From: Alphaproteobacteria bacterium
Lineage (GTDB): Bacteria > Pseudomonadota > Alphaproteobacteria > CAAGCB01 > CAG-977
Reading direction: 5' to 3'
Assembly: GCA_900768185.1 (NCBI GenBank)
Contig: CAAGCB010000029.1
Span: 74,575-138,574, forward strand
Length of the DNA: 64,000 bases
Part shown: positions 637 to 37,571 of the stretch, one piece after another
Layout: each line of letters begins with the position of its first letter
How positions within the stretch are numbered: position 1 is the first letter of the stretch
The notes under the pieces: model-generated
What the model was told of the DNA's origin: nothing
Databases searched by the model: none
Seen by the model: the letters and a program-made list of their open reading frames with translations, nothing else
Translations under genes and position numbers: made by a program

Positions 637-1266
637 ATGAAAAAGGAAATATCGGAAAAAGTGCTGGGGCGTCTGACCCTGTATCACAGCATTTTGATTG
701 AATGCATCGAAAACGGCACGGACACGATTTCCAGTTCGCAAATCGCCGCGCGTCTGCGTATTGACGATTCCCAAGTGCGCAAGGATTTCAAACTGCTGAA
801 CAACGAAGGACGCGGACGCGTCGGCTACCATGTCCCCGATCTGAAAGATTCGATCGAAGACACGCTGGGGTTCAAGACGACCAAAGACGCCGTCATCGTC
901 GGCGCGGGACATTTGGGGCAGGCGCTGGCGAAATATACGGCGTTCAACGACTACGGGCTGAACATTCACGCGCTGTTCGACACGGACGAGGGAAAAATCG
1001 GCGCGGCGATCAACGGTAAAAGGATTTTCGACATTTCCGAACTGCCCGCGCTGATGCGCGCGCAGGGCATCGAAATCGCCATTTTGACCGTTCCCGGGGC
1101 GTGCGCGCAGCAGACGGCGGATTTTTTGACGAAAGCCGATGTCAAATACATCTGGAATTTCACGCCCGCCGTGTTAAAAGTCCCCGACGATGTCAAAGTC
1201 TGGAACGAAAACCTGATTGCCAGCTTTTTGCAATTCGCCTGCCGCGATTTCCAAAAGGAAGACTGA
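637..1266 (+). CDS. rex: Redox-sensing transcriptional repressor Rex
   Basis: N-terminal wHTH (LGRLTLYHSILIE...ISSSQIAARL) plus a C-terminal NAD(H) Rossmann fold (VIVGAGHLGQALA, ILTVPG, NFTP). There is collinear similarity to B. subtilis Rex. The ATG at 637 with an AAGGA RBS is preferred over the track's TTG at 616. Confidence 0.85.
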   Translation: MKKEISEKVLGRLTLYHSILIECIENGTDTISSSQIAARLRIDDSQVRKDFKLLNNEGRGRVGYHVPDLKDSIEDTLGFKTTKDAVIVGAGHLGQALAKYTAFNDYGLNIHALFDTDEGKIGAAINGKRIFDISELPALMRAQGIEIAILTVPGACAQQTADFLTKADVKYIWNFTPAVLKVPDDVKVWNENLIASFLQFACRDFQKED

Positions 1267-1278
1267 GCTTTTCCGGCT

Positions 1279-2523
1279 TTATTTTTCAAACAAAGCCGCC
1301 AGTTCCATGTGCGGCGTGAACACGAACTGGTCGACGGGGCGCAGGCGCGTCAAACGGTAGCCGCCGCGTATCAGGATTTCGGCGTCGCGCACGAAACTGA
1401 CCGGATTGCACGAAACGGCGACGACGCGAGGGACGTCCGTCGCGGCGATTTGTTCGCATTGGGCTTTCGCGCCGGCGCGGGGCGGGTCGAACACGACGGC
1501 GTCGTATTCATACAGCTCGTCGGGGTAAAGCGGCGTTTTGAACAGGTCGCGTTCCATTGTTTCGACGCGTCCTTCGCTTGCTTTACGCAAAGCCGCCAAA
1601 GCTTGCGGGGCGTTGTCGGTTCCTTTGACGATCCGCTTTTTCCGCATCAGGGGCAGGGTGAATGTTCCCGCGCCGCAAAACAGGTCGCAGACGCGTTTCG
1701 ATTTGCCGGCGTATTCAACGACGGATTGCGTCAGCGCGTCTTGTCCCGCGACGCTCGGCTGTAAAAAACAGCCCGCGGGCGGCTTGATCGTAAAATCGCC
1801 CGCCTTGATTTCCGGCGCGCGCAAGACCGCCAGCGGTTCGGCGTCCGCGCGTTCGTTCGTTCGCCACGAAATCCGCGCCGCGCCGACGGATTCGGCAAAT
1901 GCCGCCGCGCTTTGCCGCCAGTCGAAATCGGGTTCAAACGGCAGAGTCAGCAAAATGTCCGCCCCGACTTCCGTCATTAAAACATACGCGTCGCCGACGC
2001 CTGCTTTTTTCGGATAGGTGCGTCCGGCATCGCATATAAAAGCCCGCAACGGTTGAATCAGCGCCGATAGAGCGGGAACAAGAACCGGACATCTTTCCAT
2101 TTCGACAATTCGATCGCTTTGCCGCGCGTTGAATCCGAAACGGCGCGTCCGTCCGTTCCAATAAACGGCGAAGCCGGCGCGGCGGCGGGCGTTGATCGGA
2201 GCGAAAAACGGTTCGTCAAATTCGGGCAGATCGCCGATCGAGGAGAGGGTTTCTTTGAAAAAGTGCAGTTTGAAACGGCGGTAAGCGTCCGCGTTCAAAT
2301 GTTGCAGAACGCACCCCCCGCATTCGCCAAAGCACGGACAAAGCGGCGCGACGCGGTCGGGGGAGGGCGTTCGCACGCCGGTCAATCGGGCGCGACCGCC
2401 GCCGATGATTTCGTATTCAACCGTTTCGTCCGGCAGAACGCCCGCGACAAAGACGTTTCCACATTCGCTTTTGATCAGACCGTCGCCTTGACGACCCAAG
2501 TCGAAAACTTTTCCCAGCGGCAT
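1279..2523 (-). CDS. rlmD: 23S rRNA (uracil-5-)-methyltransferase RlmD/RumA family
   Basis: N-terminal TRAM domain, Fe-S cysteines (CPCFGECGGC), and SAM motif DLFCGAGTFTLPL. Confidence 0.8.
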   Translation of the reverse strand: MPLGKVFDLGRQGDGLIKSECGNVFVAGVLPDETVEYEIIGGGRARLTGVRTPSPDRVAPLCPCFGECGGCVLQHLNADAYRRFKLHFFKETLSSIGDLPEFDEPFFAPINARRRAGFAVYWNGRTRRFGFNARQSDRIVEMERCPVLVPALSALIQPLRAFICDAGRTYPKKAGVGDAYVLMTEVGADILLTLPFEPDFDWRQSAAAFAESVGAARISWRTNERADAEPLAVLRAPEIKAGDFTIKPPAGCFLQPSVAGQDALTQSVVEYAGKSKRVCDLFCGAGTFTLPLMRKKRIVKGTDNAPQALAALRKASEGRVETMERDLFKTPLYPDELYEYDAVVFDPPRAGAKAQCEQIAATDVPRVVAVSCNPVSFVRDAEILIRGGYRLTRLRPVDQFVFTPHMELAALFEK

Positions 2524-2589
2524 TGTTTTTTTCCTGTATTTTAGTGACGCTTTGCGGCTACACTATACCCAAACAAACGGGGGATTCCA

Positions 2590-3222
2590 ATGCTGAATAT
2601 TCTGATTGCCGACGATCACGAGCTTTTCTTGGACGGCTTGCGCATGGTGTTGGGGGATTTGGACGATGAAATGCAAATCGATACGGTGCGCAATCATTTG
2701 GAATTGCAGGAAAAAGCGGACGGTAAGACGCCGTACGACCTGATTTTGACGGATTTGGCGATGCCGGGGCTGAATTGGCATGAATCTCTGCGGCGGTTGA
2801 AAGAACATTATCCCAACGTGCCGATCGTTGTCTTGTCCGCCGTGTCCGATCCCGAAAACGTGTTGCAAGCCATTGATATCGGCGCGTCCGGATTCATTCC
2901 GAAAACATCGTCGGCGAAAATCATTCTCAGCGCGTTGCATTTGGTTTTGTCGGGCGGACTTTATTTGCCGTCGGAACTGCTGAATCTGGCAAACAAGGAA
3001 GAAACGGCGCCCCCCGCCGACCACAAAGGACCTTTGACCCCGCGGCAACTGGACGTTCTGCGCCTGATGGGGCAAAGCAAACCGAACAAAATCATCGCTC
3101 GCGAACTGGATTTGTCCGAAGGGACGGTCAAACTGCACGTCACCGCGATTTTAAAAGCGCTTGACGTCACAAACCGGACGGGGGCGGTGATCGCGGGTAA
3201 AAAACTGGGACTGATCGACTGA
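2590..3222 (+). CDS. Two-component response regulator, NarL/FixJ (LuxR-HTH) family; no cognate kinase adjacent
   Basis: Receiver domain (ILIADDH...LILTDLAMPG) plus a C-terminal LuxR-type HTH (LTPRQLDVLRLMGQSKPNKIIARELDLSEGTVKLH). Confidence 0.8.
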   Translation: MLNILIADDHELFLDGLRMVLGDLDDEMQIDTVRNHLELQEKADGKTPYDLILTDLAMPGLNWHESLRRLKEHYPNVPIVVLSAVSDPENVLQAIDIGASGFIPKTSSAKIILSALHLVLSGGLYLPSELLNLANKEETAPPADHKGPLTPRQLDVLRLMGQSKPNKIIARELDLSEGTVKLHVTAILKALDVTNRTGAVIAGKKLGLID

Positions 3223-7851: not shown

Positions 7852-9150
7852 ATGAAAGTCGGAATCATCGGAACGGGATATGTCGGGTTGCCTACGGGCG
7901 TCGGTTTGGCGACGCTGGGGCATGATGTCGTGTGCATTGACGCGGTCGCCGAAAAAATCGATTCGTTGAAAGCGGGAAAAATCACGCTGTTTGAAGACGG
8001 GTTGGAGGAACTGTTCCGCAAAGCCGTCGAATCGGGACGTCTGCGCTTTACCTGTTCAATGAAAGAGGGCGTCGGTAACGCCGATGTCGTCATTTTGGCG
8101 GTTGGCACGCCCCCGCACCCCGTCACCAAAGAAGCCGACATGAAATATATTCACGCCGCCGCGCGCGAATTGGCGCAATATCTGACGGGATACACCGTCG
8201 TCGCCAATAAATCGACCGTTCCCGTCGGCACGGGCGACGCCGTCGACCGAATGATTCGGGACGTCAACCCCGCCGCCGATTTCGATGTCGTTTCCCTGCC
8301 GGAATTTCTGCGCGAAGGCTTCGCCGTGCACGACTTTTTCAATCCCGATCGCGTGATTGTCGGCGCGAACACGGAAAAAGCCGCAAACGTCATCAAAGAA
8401 TTGTATGCGCCGTTCGGGGAAAAGGCGCGTATGCTGTTCGTCAAACGCCGTTCGTCCGAAACGATCAAATACGCGTCAAACGCTTTTCTGGCGATGAAGA
8501 TCAACTATATCAACGAAATGGCGAATTTCTGCGAAAAATCAGGCGCCGACGTGTTCGAGGTCGCCAAAGGCATGGGCATGGACACCCGCATCGGGGCTAA
8601 ATTCCTGAACCCCGGTCCGGGATACGGCGGATCGTGTTTTCCGAAGGACACCAACGCGATGGCGTACATGGCGCGCGGATACGGCGTTGAAATGTCGCTG
8701 ATCGAAACGACGATCCGGCAAAACGACGCGCGCAAAACGCAGATGGCGGAGCGGATTTTGAACGCGGTCGCCGATATCGAAAATCCGAAAATCGCCGTTT
8801 TGGGCTTGGCGTTCAAAGGCGGCACGGACGATTGCCGCGAAAGCCCCGCGATGGAAATCGTCGGCGCTTTGCTGAAACGCGGCGCGGACGTCGCCGCTTT
8901 CGATCCCAAGGCGATGGATAACGCCAAAAAGCTGGTCGGGGATAAAATCAAGTACGCCGCCGATGCGTTTGATGCCGCGCGGGGGGCTGATGTCGTCGCC
9001 GTTTTAACGGAATGGGTCGATTTCAAATCGTTGGATTTGGCACGGTTGAAAACCGAAATGAAAACGCCGCGGATCGTCGATTTGCGCAATCTGCTGGATA
9101 AAGACGAAGCCGTGAAGCTGGGATTTTCCTATGTCGGAATCGGACGCTGA
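7852..9150 (+). CDS. ugd: UDP-glucose 6-dehydrogenase
   Basis: N-terminal NAD-binding GTGYVGLPTG, catalytic GYGGSCFPKDT, and an AGGAG RBS. Confidence 0.85.
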   Translation: MKVGIIGTGYVGLPTGVGLATLGHDVVCIDAVAEKIDSLKAGKITLFEDGLEELFRKAVESGRLRFTCSMKEGVGNADVVILAVGTPPHPVTKEADMKYIHAAARELAQYLTGYTVVANKSTVPVGTGDAVDRMIRDVNPAADFDVVSLPEFLREGFAVHDFFNPDRVIVGANTEKAANVIKELYAPFGEKARMLFVKRRSSETIKYASNAFLAMKINYINEMANFCEKSGADVFEVAKGMGMDTRIGAKFLNPGPGYGGSCFPKDTNAMAYMARGYGVEMSLIETTIRQNDARKTQMAERILNAVADIENPKIAVLGLAFKGGTDDCRESPAMEIVGALLKRGADVAAFDPKAMDNAKKLVGDKIKYAADAFDAARGADVVAVLTEWVDFKSLDLARLKTEMKTPRIVDLRNLLDKDEAVKLGFSYVGIGR

Positions 9151-9157
9151 CGATTGC

Positions 9158-9186
9158 TTGAAAAACAGACGAAAATACGGTATAAT
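9158..9186 (+). promoter_or_regulatory. Sigma70-like promoter for the SAS module
   Basis: TTGAAA (9158..9163), a 17-nt spacer, then TATAAT (9181..9186), 42 nt upstream of the ATG at 9229. Confidence 0.45.
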
Positions 9187-9228
9187 TCCGCTGTGAAAAA
9201 TGTTCCGCAAGGTGAAAGGCGGTAAAAA

Positions 9229-9879
9229 ATGGTGGAAAGAAAAATTCCGGAAACCTTGGACGAGGCGTACAAGCTGGCGGCGGAAGCAAAGCCCGCTTTG
9301 GACTCTTTCGGCGAACGGCTGGCTGAACGCCTCGGGTGCGAATTTCAATCCGCGCCGTTGAAGGGACGCGAACGCGCCGAGGAAAAGCTGAAAACGAAAT
9401 ACCGCGGCGATATGTCGCAATTACAGGATTTGGCGCGCGGACGATTGATTTGCGACACTTTGGAACAAATCGACGAAGTGAAAAAAATCATTGAAGCCCA
9501 TGTCAAACCCGTTCGCGCCGTGGATCGCATGGACAAGCCGACCGAAAACGGCTACCGTGATGTAAAATACGTTTTGCCCGCGCCGAACGGCGGCGTCGTC
9601 GAAATGCAGATTCAGCTGAGGGATTTGGATCGCGCTGACAAGATGACCCATAAGGAATACGAAAAAATCCGCGCCATTACCGCAGGGGCGAAAGATCGTC
9701 CGTTGACGGAAGCCGAACAAAAAGAAATCGCTCTGCGTCAGAAACGCTGCAAGGAGCTGTACGTCAACGCCGCGCTTGATTACAACAAACGCACGACGGG
9801 ACGCAAGTTGAAAGTTGAAGGAAAGCCGCAGTCGGCTCTGATGTTGCAAGCGAAAAACGCAAAGATCGGAGGGCGCTGA
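9229..9879 (+). CDS. RelA/SpoT-domain nucleotidyltransferase (small alarmone synthetase-like; toxSAS candidate)
   Basis: SAS synthetase motifs in order: KGRERAEEKLKTKYRG (G-loop-like R/K cluster), DLARGRLIC (D-x-x-G-x-R), GYRDVKYVL (GY+S.H-like) and VVEMQIQLRDL (EIQIRT-like). The protein is 216 aa and single-domain. Confidence 0.6.
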   Translation: MVERKIPETLDEAYKLAAEAKPALDSFGERLAERLGCEFQSAPLKGRERAEEKLKTKYRGDMSQLQDLARGRLICDTLEQIDEVKKIIEAHVKPVRAVDRMDKPTENGYRDVKYVLPAPNGGVVEMQIQLRDLDRADKMTHKEYEKIRAITAGAKDRPLTEAEQKEIALRQKRCKELYVNAALDYNKRTTGRKLKVEGKPQSALMLQAKNAKIGGR

Positions 9880-10073
9880 TGGGAAAAGTGACGGTTCGTT
9901 ATTTCAAGGTCGGGGTCGTTCCCGTCAAAATTGAATACACCGAATACGGCGCGCGGGCGGCGTATGTGATGGCAGACGGCGCGTTTAAAATCGACAACGC
10001 CTATATCGCCGAGGTCGCCCGGGGCGAAGATGTCGAGGAACTGACCAAGGCGGCGTTTGAAAAGCTGCTTTAA
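9879..10073 (+). CDS. 64-aa hypothetical protein translationally coupled to the SAS gene (candidate antitoxin/partner)
   Basis: The start overlaps the SAS stop as TGATG. GC3 is about 69%, consistent with coding. No recognisable domain. Confidence 0.5.
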   Translation: MGKVTVRYFKVGVVPVKIEYTEYGARAAYVMADGAFKIDNAYIAEVARGEDVEELTKAAFEKLL

Positions 10074-10107
10074 ATTCAAGCCTTTTTCAATCGTTTTCAT
10101 CATTTTC

Positions 10108-10140
10108 GGGGGACAAAAACATTTTGTCCCCCGTTTTTAT
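10108..10140 (+). terminator. Rho-independent terminator after the SAS module
   Basis: Perfect 11-bp stem GGGGGACAAAA / TTTTGTCCCCC with a 3-nt loop, followed by GTTTTTAT. Confidence 0.65.
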
Positions 10141-10149
10141 ATTGCCCGA

Positions 10150-10414
10150 AAAAGCGGAATTTGACTATACTGCCTCTATTCCCGCCTTAAAAGCGGGACA
10201 GCGCCTTGGCGGGCGCTGAGCCGTGAGAAGCTCTTTTCAAGAAACAGGCGTTTGATATGAACGCCGTAATCCGTTTCGCATAGCGTGAAACGGAATTGTA
10301 TCCCCGATTCGTTTGAAGGTCGGGGAGGTTTTGGCGTATGTTCAGAAGCCCCGATTTGAATCGGAACGCTTTAAAGGTCAAACGATGACATACTATCACT
10401 AAACCGTCATCGTT
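10150..10414. repeat. About 260-nt tract of at least 8 consecutive short GC-rich stem-loops (REP/BIME-like array or structured RNA)
   Basis: Hairpins read from the sequence: CCCGC/GCGGG, AGCGCC/GGCGCT, GAGC/GCTC, GGCGTT/AACGCC, CCGTTTC/GAAACGG, CCCCGA/TCGGGG, CCGATT/AATCGG and ACGATGAC/GTCATCGT. Two near-repeat units CCCCGATT(CG)TTTGAA are present. No tRNA T-loop is present. Confidence 0.3.
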
Positions 10415-10760
10415 CGATTCCCCTTTTTTTTGAATGTTTTGCGGGCTTGGGACGGTTGGCGGCGTCGCGGGATCGTTTCAGCTGTTCAAGCGTTTTGTGT
10501 TTGCGCGGAATGACGACTTGCGTCAGGGAAAAGTCCCTGTCCTGAAACCGCGTCGCCTGCAATTCGACGCCGAACCGTTTGGCGATTTCGGACTGGCGCA
10601 AGCGCATTTGCTCGATTTCCCGCCGGTTGAACTCCAACCGTTTCAAGTTGTTGTTCAGTTTCAAAATAAAGTGAATGTGTTTATGCCGTTGATGACGGTG
10701 CGCGGCGGAGAATTGTCGCTGAAATACGAAGGACGTTTTAAAAAGGATTACGCCGATCAC
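10407..10760 (-). pseudogene. HUH-family (IS200/IS605 TnpA or REP-associated tyrosine transposase-like) remnant, N-terminally truncated
   Basis: HxH-hydrophobic motif HKHIHFIL, then downstream LQATRFQDRDFSL resembling the RAYT WQxRFxDHxIR region. Only about 25 aa precede HxH where about 60 are expected. GC3 on the minus strand is higher than for the antisense plus-strand ORF in the same phase. Adjacent to the stem-loop array. Confidence 0.3.
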
Positions 10761-10824
10761 ACGGGTATGGTGAATCTGAAAGTGAATTTCTGATTCCCGA
10801 ATCTTTTGTCGGAGAGAAAGGCGT

Positions 10825-12261
10825 TTATAAAAAAGGCGGGGAAAACATGCCCAACGCGTCGACGATGTCGGACGCCGTTAAATTACGGCGGTTGACGGTT
10901 TCGGCGGCGCGGGAATGCAGATGTACGCCCGCGCAGGCGGCTTCGAACGGGGGCATGGCTTTTGACAGCATGGCGCCGATGACGCCGCTTAAAACGTCGC
11001 CGCTGCCCGCCGTCGCCAGATTGAACGCCGTCGTCACGTTGACGACCGCGCGTCCGTCGGGGGCGGCGATGACGGTGTCGGCGCCTTTGAGCACGACAAC
11101 GCAATTCAGCGTTTTTGCGGCACTCATGGCTTGTTTCAATTTGCTTTTTTCCGTCATGTCGGGGAACAGACGGGAAAATTCGCCCGAATGCGGCGTGATG
11201 ACGGCGCGGGACAAATCTTTGACGCTTTTGACGAAAGGCAGGGCGCCCGCGTCGGCGACAAAGGGCTTTTTCGATGCGGAAAGCGCGTTCAGCATTTCTT
11301 TGGCGCGGGGTGTTTCCTTTAACCCCATGCCGATGACGGCGGCGGAAATTTTGCGGCTGTCCAGTTGGGTTTTGAAAGTTTCGGGCGTGTCGGCGGGCAG
11401 AACGACCGTTTCGGCGTCAAGGGCGAAAACGTCCTGTCGCGCCGCGTCGCAGGATACGCCGACCCAGCCCGCCCCTGCGCGCCGCGCCGCCGCGACGGTC
11501 AATCGGGCGGCTCCGGTCATTTCTCCCGCGCGCACCAACACCGCGCCGCGGGAATACTTGTTATCCGAGGGGGCGGCGGCGGGAACTGAAAACAGATCGG
11601 GTGTGTTTTCGAACAGAAACGGATTTTGACGGGCTACGATTTCATCGGGAACGCCGATCGGGCAAACGACCAAATCGCCGACGCGCTCGCGTGCGGGATA
11701 AAGGAAATGTCCGATTTTCGGGCGGCAGAACGTGACGGTCATGTCGCAAAAAGGCGCCGTTCCCGCGATTTCGCCCGTGTCGGCGACGACGCCGCTGGGA
11801 ATGTCCAAAGCGCAACACGGCACGTCCGTTTCGTTTAAAGCGTTGAAAAAATCGCTCAGGTCGCCGGAAATCGGGCGCGACAGTCCGATTCCGAACACGG
11901 CGTCGACGAACAGCCCGTTCAGCCGCCGCATCTCGTCCAATCGCTTGAACGACGGCGGGCGGACGGAACCTTTGAACAGATCGGCGTGATGACGCGCGGC
12001 AGGGGACATTTTTTGTTCGTCGCCGACAAAGGCGACCTCGACAAACCAGCCGCGCCGGCGCAACAGACGGGCGACGACAAATCCGTCTCCGCCGTTGTTG
12101 CCCGCGCCGCACAAAACGATGACGGGGCGTTTGCCGTATCTGCGCGCGATTTGGCAGGCGGCGGCGAAGCCCGCGTTTTCCATCAGTTGAATTTCAGGGA
12201 TAAAGCGTTCGCGCGTTTCCTTGTCCGCCGCGTACATTTGTTCGGTCGTCAAAATTTCCAT
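10825..12261 (-). CDS. nnr: Bifunctional NAD(P)H-hydrate repair enzyme Nnr (epimerase + dehydratase)
   Basis: N-terminal YjeF_N (VLCGAGNNGGDGFVVARLL) plus a C-terminal carbohydrate-kinase-like dehydratase domain (GDVLSGVIGAMLS). Confidence 0.8.
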   Translation of the reverse strand: MEILTTEQMYAADKETRERFIPEIQLMENAGFAAACQIARRYGKRPVIVLCGAGNNGGDGFVVARLLRRRGWFVEVAFVGDEQKMSPAARHHADLFKGSVRPPSFKRLDEMRRLNGLFVDAVFGIGLSRPISGDLSDFFNALNETDVPCCALDIPSGVVADTGEIAGTAPFCDMTVTFCRPKIGHFLYPARERVGDLVVCPIGVPDEIVARQNPFLFENTPDLFSVPAAAPSDNKYSRGAVLVRAGEMTGAARLTVAAARRAGAGWVGVSCDAARQDVFALDAETVVLPADTPETFKTQLDSRKISAAVIGMGLKETPRAKEMLNALSASKKPFVADAGALPFVKSVKDLSRAVITPHSGEFSRLFPDMTEKSKLKQAMSAAKTLNCVVVLKGADTVIAAPDGRAVVNVTTAFNLATAGSGDVLSGVIGAMLSKAMPPFEAACAGVHLHSRAAETVNRRNLTASDIVDALGMFSPPFL

Positions 12262-35014: not shown

Positions 35015-35653
35015 ATGTCTGATAAATACGACTCTGTAGAAAGCGCGATAAAATTCATTGAAAACGCGTATGACCGCGGCGGGCGGTATCTGGTGGACGG
35101 GCGTCCGAGATACACCGCGCACGCCGTCAGAATGGAAGACGAAACGGGATTGACGGGCATCGCCGGACGCTACAAATTCGTCGGGGGAAAAGAGGCGGCT
35201 TTCGCCGAATACGACTATCGCAAACGGTTTTTGAAATATTCGACCGCCGCCGGCTTTATGAAGTCGGACGATCCGATCGCCAGACAGGCGGGGGAAACGT
35301 TCAAATCCGAAATGCCCGCCGCGCTGGACGAAATGAACCGCGAAATCGGCGAACTGGCGAAATTGAATCCCGAATTGAAGAATTTGAATTACAATAAAAA
35401 TCACGTTGTGGAAACGTACCGCGCGCTGATCGGCATCACGTCGCAGTACAATGTCGACGACATTAACGCCTATCTGCACAATTACCGCACGGGAAAAAAG
35501 AACTTTGACGTTTTGAACCGCGCCGAAAAAATCAGCAAGGCGACCGGAATCCGTTTCGGCTGGCAACCTGCGGCAAAAACGATGGACAAAATCGAACGGC
35601 AACTGGCGGCGCGTCAAATCGCGATGACGAAACGCGCCGAAGTTTCCAGATAA
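35015..35653 (+). CDS. Hypothetical protein (212 aa), no recognised domain
   Basis: The ATG at 35015 is preferred over the track's TTG at 34997. Protein-like composition, and a strong terminator follows. Confidence 0.45.
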   Translation: MSDKYDSVESAIKFIENAYDRGGRYLVDGRPRYTAHAVRMEDETGLTGIAGRYKFVGGKEAAFAEYDYRKRFLKYSTAAGFMKSDDPIARQAGETFKSEMPAALDEMNREIGELAKLNPELKNLNYNKNHVVETYRALIGITSQYNVDDINAYLHNYRTGKKNFDVLNRAEKISKATGIRFGWQPAAKTMDKIERQLAARQIAMTKRAEVSR

Positions 35654-35688
35654 AACGGCATTTAACTTCCTCCAAGAAGTATGACGAA

Positions 35689-35732
35689 GAAAAGACCGGA
35701 GGCGACGCTTTCCGGTCTTTTCTTTATTTTTT
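35689..35732. terminator. Bidirectional rho-independent terminator between the hypothetical gene and pepF
   Basis: GAAAAGACCGGA-ggcgacgctt-TCCGGTCTTTTC followed by TTTATTTTTT. Confidence 0.65.
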
Positions 35733-35738
35733 CGGAAT

Positions 35739-37571
35739 TTATCTGCCCGCGGATTTCGCCTGTTTCAGCAAAACGGGGGACGTTTTCGTCCTGTCCATGC
35801 CCAACGTTCCGGTCAGGAGCTCCAGCTTGTCGACGTAACCTTTCATCATGCCCAGTCCCTGTTTCCAAAAATCGGGTTTGGACGTGTCCAGTCCGAACGG
35901 TTCCAACAGCTTGGAATAATGCTCGGTCGAACCCTTTGACAGCATTTCCTTGTATTTTTTCGGGAAATCCTTGACTGCGCCGTCTTCGTACGTTTTGTAC
36001 AGCGACGCCGTCAGACATTCGCCGAACGCGTAGCCGTACACATAAAACGGCGTGCGCAGCAAATGCGGCACGTCAGCCCACGACGACGACGTGCGATCGT
36101 CGTTTTCGACGGCGGGTCCCAGCATGGCGCGCTGCGTTTTCGTCCAAATGCCGTTTAAATCCCGCGCGTCAACCTTTCCCAGTTTTCGCACGGCGTCGTG
36201 AACGTCCGTTTCGTAATGATGCAGGGCGACTTGCCGGAACGTCGTCAGCATGACGCGCGTCATCTTGTCGGACAGCAGGGCGAAACGCCGTTTCGGGTCG
36301 GTTTCGTTCTTCAGCATTTGGTTGAACGCCAGCGTTTCGCCGAAAATCGACGCGGTTTCTTCCATCGTGACGGGCATGTTCATTCCCAGAGAACCGTTTT
36401 TCTTCGCCAGTTCGTAATGAATGCCGTGTCCCAGTTCGTGCGCCAAAGCCAGAACGTCGTTCGTCGTACCGTTGAAATTCATTTTAATGCAGGCTTTGCC
36501 GTTCGCGACGGGTTGAGCGTATTCTCCGCCTTCTTTTCCCGCGCGGGGTTCGGCGTCGATGCGCTTTTCGTCAAAGAACGCCTGCGCGATGTCCCCCATT
36601 TCGGAATCGAAGCCGCGATAGGCGGACAGGACGATGTCTTTCGCTTCGTCAAAAGTGTAGCGGCGCGGTTCGACGCCGGCGACGGGCGCGTTTCTGTCCC
36701 AGTATCCGATTTTACCGCGTCCCAGCCATTTGGCTTTCAGCGCGTAGAAACGGTGCGCGACGTCGGGGGCGGAATCGTCGACGGACGAAACCAACGCGTC
36801 GACGACGCCGTTTTCGACGCCGTTTGATCTGTTGCGTTCCTCGACGGGGGATTTGAAACCGGACAGATCGTCGGAAACCTGCTTCGCGCGCGCGACGGTC
36901 GTTACGATTTTCGCGAAAACGTCGCCGCGGCTTTTATATCCGTCGTTCAGCGCCAGTCCCGCTTTCAGTCTGTCGCCGGCGTCGGCGGAATAGGACAGCG
37001 CGTACAGCGTGTCCGCCGTGACCCTTTCGCCGTTCAGTTCAAAGCCGATGCCGCCGCACGTTTTGTCGTACAGGCGCAAAGCCCGCCGCGCGTCGCCGTC
37101 CGCGCGATCCAGTTTTTTCGCCTGTGCGGCGGTCGGGGTCGGGCGTTTTTGCGCGCGCGCCCGTTCAATCCAAAAAGCGAAACGGCGGGCTTGCGGCGTC
37201 GTTGTCAGGCGGGACAGCTTTTCTTCGGGCATGTCGGCGATTTCGGATTCGAAAAATCCGATTTTGTCATAGATTTTTTGGGTCTTTTCGGTTGTCTTTT
37301 CGTAAAAGGCGGCGACATCGTCCGAATCCGTCGCGACGGAATAGCGCATGTAGGCGAACGCGTCGACCTTTTCGACGTCGGCGTTCAATCGGTCGTAATC
37401 AATCAGCATTTTTCCGAAATCGGCGGGCGTCATGTTCGCGATCCCGCCGCGTCCGCGCCGTTCGAAACGCTTCGCCCGCAATTCAGCCGCCGCCAAATCC
37501 GCGTCGATCGCCGGATCGTCGATCGATTTGTACAAAAAACTCAGATCCCAACGGGGAGGCGTCGCCGACAT
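35739..37571 (-). CDS. pepF: Oligoendopeptidase F (M3B)
   Basis: HELGHGIHYELA zinc motif. 610 aa. Confidence 0.85.
   Translation of the reverse strand: MSATPPRWDLSFLYKSIDDPAIDADLAAAELRAKRFERRGRGGIANMTPADFGKMLIDYDRLNADVEKVDAFAYMRYSVATDSDDVAAFYEKTTEKTQKIYDKIGFFESEIADMPEEKLSRLTTTPQARRFAFWIERARAQKRPTPTAAQAKKLDRADGDARRALRLYDKTCGGIGFELNGERVTADTLYALSYSADAGDRLKAGLALNDGYKSRGDVFAKIVTTVARAKQVSDDLSGFKSPVEERNRSNGVENGVVDALVSSVDDSAPDVAHRFYALKAKWLGRGKIGYWDRNAPVAGVEPRRYTFDEAKDIVLSAYRGFDSEMGDIAQAFFDEKRIDAEPRAGKEGGEYAQPVANGKACIKMNFNGTTNDVLALAHELGHGIHYELAKKNGSLGMNMPVTMEETASIFGETLAFNQMLKNETDPKRRFALLSDKMTRVMLTTFRQVALHHYETDVHDAVRKLGKVDARDLNGIWTKTQRAMLGPAVENDDRTSSSWADVPHLLRTPFYVYGYAFGECLTASLYKTYEDGAVKDFPKKYKEMLSKGSTEHYSKLLEPFGLDTSKPDFWKQGLGMMKGYVDKLELLTGTLGMDRTKTSPVLLKQAKSAGR

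Follow-up and report, generated by a model that had tools for sequence, protein, structure and literature searches.

Small alarmone synthetases that act as toxins (toxSAS) are encoded in toxin–antitoxin (TA) loci that are defined by a bicistronic, often overlapping arrangement (PMC7229694). Tas1/Apk1 of P. aeruginosa (PDB 6OX6), a (p)ppApp synthetase effector of a type VI secretion system (T6SS), has the gene for its immunity protein Tis1 directly downstream, and every characterized enzyme homologous to Apk1 is toxic when cytoplasmic (PMC12691689, PMC10083569, PMC12226406). Adjacent immunity genes set toxSAS enzymes apart from exported synthetases (PMC12691689). FaRel of Cellulomonas marina, which belongs to a cytoplasmic TA module together with ATfaRel, a small alarmone hydrolase (SAH), and AT2faRel, is a (pp)pApp-producing enzyme neutralized at the acceptor site by the Tis1-like domain of AT2faRel (PMC11782079, PMC7229694). 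A stretch of 64,000 nucleotides from an uncultured gut alphaproteobacterium (contig CAAGCB010000029.1, positions 74,575 to 138,574; the whole stretch is called the window here, and positions are counted from its first letter) includes a bicistron consisting of a small alarmone synthetase (SAS) gene (9229..9879, + strand, 216 aa) and a 64-aa open reading frame (ORF; 9879..10073, + strand). This pair is probably a two-gene, chromosomally fixed toxin–antitoxin (toxin–immunity) module of the toxSAS kind with a stand-alone Apk/Tas1-like enzyme. It is most likely an already known kind of TA pair, not a new system type: the host group is new to toxSAS, the architecture is minimal, the partner is an orphan in sequence, and the system logic is already established.

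Closest relatives and catalytic residues of the enzyme

The SAS is a single-domain RelA/SpoT synthetase with intact catalytic residues. Pfam RelA_SpoT (PF04607) matches residues 49–140 with 39.9 bits (gathering score 27; E=5.7e-10), and no other Pfam domain is found in the protein, as the original prediction had supposed from four synthetase motifs that are all present verbatim. In the AlphaFold2 model (mean confidence, pLDDT, 90.2), which contains one SYNTH domain, residues 1–190 comprise the catalytic domain and two long C-terminal helices, which bear a DRPLT..EQ motif invariant in the family; residues ~195–216 are a K/R-rich tail modeled with low confidence. The catalytic motifs Syn1 (Lys/Arg), Syn2 (Mg-binding Asp) and Syn4 (ExQ) are all present. 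In an alignment of 14 family members, K45, R47, R49, K53, D67, R70, R72, G108-Y-R-D111, K113, E125, Q127, H141, Y144, E145, and K146 are invariant. H141 is also invariant in a 20-sequence family alignment, and K45, K53, D67, R70, E125, and Q127 are invariant in the two alignments that take in remote relatives; Tas1, a phage Apk2-like toxin and a Photobacterium SAS are part of the second.

Among solved structures, both sequence and fold comparisons place the SAS nearest to the toxin domain of the (p)ppApp synthetase Tas1/Apk1. This domain (6ox6_A) is matched with E=2e-9 by the single sequence and E=2e-18 by the family profile, whereas the profile matches RelP/RelQ with 1e-7 to 1e-5 (RelP, 1.3e-7), i.e., ~1e11-fold more weakly than Tas1, and long RelA/SpoT homolog (RSH) enzymes more weakly still. 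In Foldseek searches with the SAS model, Tas1 is the top match (E=5.7e-10) and RelP/RelQ come next, ~ten-fold weaker; 72 PDB chains are found at E<=0.001, and the top 50 listed are all RSH synthetases. CapRel and FaRel2 are absent from these 50, and neither is found among PDB chains by the family profile even at E<=10. These chains served as a proxy for the validated toxSAS subfamilies (FaRel, FaRel2, PhRel, PhRel2, and CapRel); by this comparison, which covers CapRel and FaRel2, the SAS is not demonstrably in any of the five. The toxSAS reading of the original prediction thus stands with respect to the single-domain synthetase, the pairing with a small ORF (see below) and the locus architecture, but the nearest characterized relative is Tas1/Apk1 in place of the tRNA-modifying toxins FaRel2, CapRel, and PhRel.

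NCBIfam models of housekeeping SAS/RSH equivalogs score just 14–18 bits against cut-offs of 320–947 (GTPPhKinYjbM, 15.7 bits, cut-off 320), and thus the SAS is not a RelQ/RelP equivalog; a conserved housekeeping RelV/RelQ-type enzyme widely present without the small partner is what the original prediction had named as contrary to its proposal. Membership of the PADLOC candidate defence system PDC-S33 was considered and rejected: the match (E=5.8e-7) aligns residues 50–119 with positions 78–150 of a 349-position profile, a partial match reflecting shared-domain similarity.

Unlike Tas1/Apk1, to which it is ~22–30% identical, the SAS has neither a PAAR delivery domain nor a T6SS context. Its residue 5 is aligned to residue 244 of Tas1, at the start of that protein's toxin domain, and the HMMER alignment of the two ends before the DRPLT..EQ helix region. 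The N-terminus (MVERKIPETLDEAYKLAAEAK) is hydrophilic, and the model shows a helix from residue 10 onward; the protein has neither a signal peptide nor a delivery domain (PAAR, Rhs, LXG, MuF, or DUF4157). As there is no export or delivery signal, the SAS is expected to stay in the cytoplasm of its producer.

Apk2–IapK–Aph1 systems are MuF polymorphic toxins of temperate phages, and an unannotated locus of this type in Bordetella phage PHB04 (MF663786) was used for comparison. The Apk2-like toxin domain of this phage is 31% identical to SAS residues 42–201, C-terminal helices included, and an overlapping 69-aa ORF comes after the toxin gene, much as the 64-aa ORF does at the SAS locus. Apk2, however, has a phage-head MuF domain in the same protein, and its locus usually encodes an HD-type (p)ppApp hydrolase as well; the SAS locus has neither. 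The absence of PAAR and MuF domains distinguishes the SAS from Apk1 and Apk2. FaRel, likewise a cytoplasmic toxSAS, differs in that its module is a tricistron that includes an SAH antitoxin, and in that an extra pZFD domain is part of the type II antitoxin; the SAS module is a minimal two-gene version. RelV/exported alarmone synthetases (VpEAS and SaEAS; PDB 8VX3) belong to the same radiation of Apk1 homologs as the SAS: SaEAS is among its Foldseek matches, and SAS genes with signal peptides in Photobacterium are 30% identical to it. These exported enzymes have a Sec signal peptide and no adjacent immunity gene (PMC12691689). The SAS is the opposite in both respects, and its lack of a signal peptide and its constant partner argue that it is not an exported synthetase.

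Three further observations were made among the remote relatives. The phage locus (vB_BbrM_PHB04, 35166..37431) appears to be an unrecognized Apk2-type locus, in which the portal gene is followed by the gene of a 493-aa 'hypothetical protein' whose C-terminal part is a RelA_SpoT toxin domain, then by the overlapping 69-aa ORF and by an HD_4 hydrolase that bears the annotation bifunctional (p)ppGpp synthetase/hydrolase. Plasmid pDA100 of Photobacterium sp. DA100 carries tandem signal-peptide SAS genes of the RelV/exported type (1235..2023 and 2243..3067), ~30% identical to the window enzyme, which lack a small partner and are left unannotated in the plasmid table. A remote SAS-like clade of 267–321-aa proteins with ~30% identity is represented by P0038 (locus L010, 4001..4804), P0041 and P0042 (loci L011 and L013), of which P0038 and P0041 give no Pfam RelA_SpoT match at E<=0.01. 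Viral contigs yielded no relatives of the SAS.

The 64-aa partner, strict pairing and a mosaic core in the putative toxin

A homolog of the small ORF lies directly downstream of the SAS gene in all 22 loci (21 fetched loci and the JGI contig L030) in which the SAS is >50% identical, including copies in unrelated neighborhoods; conservation of the pair, which the original prediction had proposed to check, thus proves strict. The two genes are joined by ATGA or a short overlap, or abut each other. SAS and partner diverge together: their identities (SAS/partner) across loci are 75/87, 70/83, 65/61, 61/57, 59/42, and 54/36%.

In the window, the stop codon of the SAS gene (TGA, 9877–9879) and the start codon of the small ORF (ATG, 9879–9881) share base 9879, forming the ATGA overlap (9877–9881, + strand), and a Shine-Dalgarno sequence GGAGGG (9868..9873, + strand) lies inside the 3' end of the SAS gene. 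This arrangement implies translational coupling of the two genes. Among the syntenic orthologs, G-rich Shine-Dalgarno-like runs are seen again, as are junctions that abut or overlap, and stop and start codons also abut or overlap at loci L003 and L005.

Both genes are real and under purifying selection. GC content at third codon positions (GC3) of the small ORF is 0.66, coding-like as had been proposed and within the 0.62–0.72 of neighboring genes. In comparison with six orthologous loci, the ratio of non-synonymous to synonymous substitution rates (dN/dS) is 0.12–0.17 for the SAS, 0.15–0.31 for the small ORF and 0.09–0.19 for ugd, the gene upstream of the pair. An intrinsic terminator (10107..10143, + strand) closes the bicistron with a hairpin at 10107..10133 (12-bp stem with fully complementary arms and 7 G–C pairs, 3-nt loop) and a T-run, and was correctly described as perfect; its hairpin region gives short blastn matches in most related loci. 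The proposed promoter is likewise present as a sigma-70-type promoter-like site, TTGAAA-17-TATAAT (9158..9186, + strand), which agrees with the consensus at 11 of 12 positions and lies within the 78-nt ugd–SAS spacer, 43 nt upstream of the first codon of the SAS. The region holds two promoter-like sites against 1.2 expected from shuffles, and the class is not enriched. In the L001-type lineage, the ugd–SAS spacer is only 21 nt, and therefore an own promoter is not a conserved feature of the module.

The toxin core is mosaic. When the divergence trough in the SAS gene was compared across loci L019, L007, and L001, nucleotide identity of the core (9412..9830) to L019, from the closest genome, was 68–75%, whereas that of the flanks is 90–98% (ugd, 90–96%; downstream of the pair, 95–98%). 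The same core is 80–88% identical to the more distant L001 lineage, above the identity of that lineage's flanks. A trough inside more similar flanks together with the higher identity to L001 indicates allelic (recombinational) exchange of the toxin core between lineages, suggesting accessory-type evolution of the pair.

The partner is acidic (pI 5.3) and the SAS is basic (pI 9.35), giving charge complementarity. The partner model (pLDDT 93.8) has the order beta1–4, helix, beta5, helix. In accordance with the original prediction that the small protein has no recognizable similarity, no match was obtained in Pfam, NCBIfam, or PADLOC, nor in Pfam for any of the 20 members of its family. Profile searches against PDB sequences with three alignments of growing diversity retrieved neither Tis1 nor anything else, and Foldseek of the model against PDB gave nothing significant, thus no support for a fold match with Tis1. 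An exhaustive HMMER search of 1.84 billion representative proteins yielded 18 partner homologs at E<=0.001, mostly of 59–105 aa.

Known Tis1-like proteins are ~24% identical to Tis1 (PMC10083569). The 69-aa PHB04 protein, which occupies the IapK position, has no detectable sequence similarity to the partner (hhalign probability 0.1) and no match to Tis1. Because a phage protein at this position matches neither Tis1 nor the partner family, sequence tests are uninformative for the Tis1-like class. The partner is a putative antitoxin or immunity protein, probably Tis1-like. A pZFD-type antitoxin with a conserved YXXY was also considered: the window partner has a Y20-x-x-Y23 string, but the second Tyr is not conserved in the partner family, and this candidate was rejected.

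Members of the SAS family are few: 16–22 clusters came from a word-indexed search of 5.8 billion proteins, and 12 of ~185,000 species genomes carry the family. Of these, 11, sampled from human gut, rumen, and horse faeces, bear the label uncultured Alphaproteobacteria or Rhodospirillales. The proteins have no source name or are called 'hypothetical protein.' The twelfth genome, with locus L018 (CAVCSV010000006.1), is labeled Limosilactobacillus gorillae; the locus is syntenic with the alphaproteobacterial loci and its ugd protein is 81% identical to that of the window, on account of which the bin is probably mislabeled or contaminated. Two high-GC soil homologs of the partner (L027, 652..894; L028, 624..872) are 35% identical to it, have no SAS neighbor and differ in the genes upstream of them; they may belong to a broader small-domain family or be orphan genes of immunity-like type. 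In metagenome scans for distant relatives of the partner, the one with P0050 returned short soil contigs, none with an SAS beside the match, and another returned nothing. In the longer remote SAS relatives (P0038, P0040–P0042), a fused copy of the small protein was sought by tblastn with the partner, and no match was found in their loci.

Proposed mode of action and alternatives

In the preferred model, the SAS would be a cytoplasmic, stand-alone toxSYNTH pyrophosphokinase of the Apk/Tas1 type, transferring the beta,gamma-pyrophosphate of ATP onto the 3'-OH of a purine nucleotide to produce (p)ppApp and/or (p)ppGpp. With the very high turnover typical of the clade, this reaction would drain ATP and arrest growth; toxicity of the unopposed enzyme is expected because the characterized Apk1 homologs are toxic in the cytoplasm. 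The acidic 64-aa partner, supplied from the same mRNA by translational coupling, would bind the basic SAS and block it, most likely by occlusion of the acceptor-nucleotide site as Tis1 does on Tas1. Occlusion of this site is deemed likeliest because it is the proposed rule for (pp)pApp-producing toxSAS enzymes with Tis1-like inhibitors (PMC11782079). The module might thus work like Tas1–Tis1, Apk2–IapK, and FaRel with the N-terminal domain of AT2faRel, and the locus fits the general definition of toxSAS TA loci (PMC7229694). Abortive-infection defence and addiction are likely options for its role, suggested solely by the neighboring genes in some relatives, where the adjacent slot or flank holds a SoFic gene, a PDC-S06 gene with recombinases, or an IS3-type HTH_Tnp_1 gene; this neighborhood also counts in favor of a TA module.

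If confirmed, the pair would be a minimal Apk/Tas1 toxin free of delivery domains with a 64-residue inhibitor, chromosomally fixed in poorly studied Alphaproteobacteria of gut, rumen and faeces, and would extend toxSAS TA modules to the Apk1 clade and a new host group. Structural work on how the acceptor site is occluded would gain a very small inhibitor that folds well, and the recombinant toxin core would be a natural experiment on toxin–antitoxin specificity. The current picture of how toxSAS enzymes work would remain unchanged.

Several points weigh against this model. In 17 of the 22 loci, the position of the pair is fixed, its GC is host-like and the purifying selection on it is ordinary, all of which would equally be seen for a conserved physiological enzyme. 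In the L001 lineage, it starts 21 nt after ugd and may be co-transcribed with this housekeeping gene. The remote SAS relatives P0038–P0042 (~30% identity) have no such partner, and the remote relatives of the partner in soil metagenomes are not beside any SAS. As for the product, Apk1 homologs include (p)ppApp-only, (p)ppGpp-only, and dual-product enzymes (PMC12691689), and swaps of Syn motifs leave specificity unchanged (PMC12226406); the product is therefore not inferable from homology.

A non-toxic physiological SAS, i.e., a RelV-like (p)ppGpp/(p)ppApp signaling enzyme with the 64-aa protein as a dedicated regulatory subunit (inhibitor or activator), is an unlikely alternative. It would account for the synteny with ugd and nnr, which is fixed across genomes whose nnr is down to 53–80% identical, for the host-like GC and GC3, for a dN/dS resembling that of ugd and for the short L001 spacer; in addition, P0038 and P0041 stand alone among housekeeping genes, Tas1 itself has been described as a divergent homolog of the RelV subfamily (PMC7229694), and RelP/RelQ are only ~ten-fold behind Tas1 in Foldseek E-value. 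RelV-type enzymes are, however, exported and toxic if cytoplasmic (PMC12691689), and the SAS has no signal peptide. A small overlapping ORF at every locus is the signature of toxSAS (PMC7229694). The mosaic allele exchange in the toxin core, the copies relocated beside recombinases and defence genes, and the scores far under the cut-offs of the NCBIfam SAS equivalogs also argue against this alternative.

About equally unlikely is that the enzyme is of the stand-alone Apk clade but the partner is not Tis1-like and founds a new class of toxSAS neutralizer or regulator, a sequence-orphan beta-meander-plus-helix protein acting at a different site or by a different mechanism. In this case, the acceptor of the enzyme might be non-canonical, or the enzyme might be a conserved physiological switch in gut Alphaproteobacteria, and the mosaic toxin core would be a trace of arms-race selection exerted by phage triggers.

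It is improbable that the SAS is a translation-targeting toxSAS that pyrophosphorylates the tRNA 3'-CCA, like FaRel2, CapRel, or PhRel, with the small protein blocking the ATP donor site. The basic SAS with its K/R-rich C-terminal tail would suit a tRNA substrate, the Y20-x-x-Y23 string recalls the YXXY of pZFD antitoxins (PMC11782079), and the weak PDC-S33 match points in the same direction. Nevertheless, the profile that finds Tas1 at 2e-18 finds no CapRel or FaRel2 chain, both are outside the Foldseek top 50, the partner is not pZFD-like and does not conserve the second Tyr in its family, and the PDC-S33 match spans 70 residues of the 349-position profile.

Less probable still is a cargo-type effector–immunity pair, delivered without a fused domain by a secretion system encoded elsewhere and sharing its biochemistry with the TA module proposed here: the closest solved relative is a T6SS effector with its immunity gene directly downstream, allelic diversification of the toxin core is typical of effector–immunity loci, and partner homologs without an SAS neighbor resemble orphan immunity genes, but the SAS begins at the toxin domain with no PAAR, Rhs, LXG, MuF, DUF4157, or signal-peptide module, no secretion-system genes are found among the called neighbors at any locus, and no relatives are found in viral contigs.

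Neighborhood of the pair

In the window, the pair is flanked by ugd (three UDPG_MGDP_dh domains) and nnr (YjeF_N and Carb_kinase), whose identities are confirmed by these domains. The pair lies between ugd and nnr–NUDIX in 17 of the 22 loci; the exceptions are four horse-faeces loci and the short JGI contig. The accessory context that had been suggested for the pair therefore holds in part: the adjacent slot is variable, but the pair itself remains at one locus in most genomes and its GC and GC3 match those of the host.

The slot between the small ORF and nnr (L001, 5826..7372; L006, 5590..9358; L007, 5192..5671) contains DUF5662 alone, DUF5662 with a Fic gene that fits the defence model SoFic (E=7.7e-45), or DUF5662 with an autotransporter of 1070 aa, and looks like a local integration hotspot. 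In the window, it consists only of a hairpin-rich spacer, and no remnants of DUF5662 or Fic were found in this downstream spacer. In two metagenome-assembled genomes from horse faeces, the pair is located elsewhere than between ugd and nnr. One copy has as neighbors three recombinase genes and a candidate defence gene (PDC-S06 AAA_13, E=4e-84); in the vicinity of the other are RloB, a methyltransferase-like gene, and a gene for a trypsin-like protease. An IS3-type HTH_Tnp_1 gene comes after the pair in L030. The neighbors of the remote relatives P0038 and P0041, as called in L010 and L011, are of housekeeping type.

No hydrolase-type immunity gene was found in the window. The sole weak match, in ORF 35739..37571, was rejected as an HD hydrolase, since by eye its translation reads as an M3-type oligoendopeptidase (HExxH).

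The stem-loop array noted in the original prediction is real. It lies just past the operon terminator (10172..10400; 229 nt, ~eight hairpins) with a folding z-score of -4.4 on both strands, and is preceded by a promoter-like site (10142..10171). Rfam gave no match in 9000..11000. The array is 96% identical to that of the closest genome (L019), above the identity of adjacent coding DNA, and the L001 lineage lacks it; it may represent a small RNA gene or an array of palindromes resembling repetitive extragenic palindromic (REP) elements. The neighboring ORF 10407..10760 (- strand, 117 aa), which had been taken for a transposase remnant, has only sub-threshold Pfam matches, to Sipho_tail (E=0.0011) and Relaxase (E=0.03), and an H-x-H-x-H string. 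Window positions 10387..10700 stand in place of ~3 kb found in the closest genome, L019. The ORF may be a remnant of a mobilization gene rather than of a transposase.

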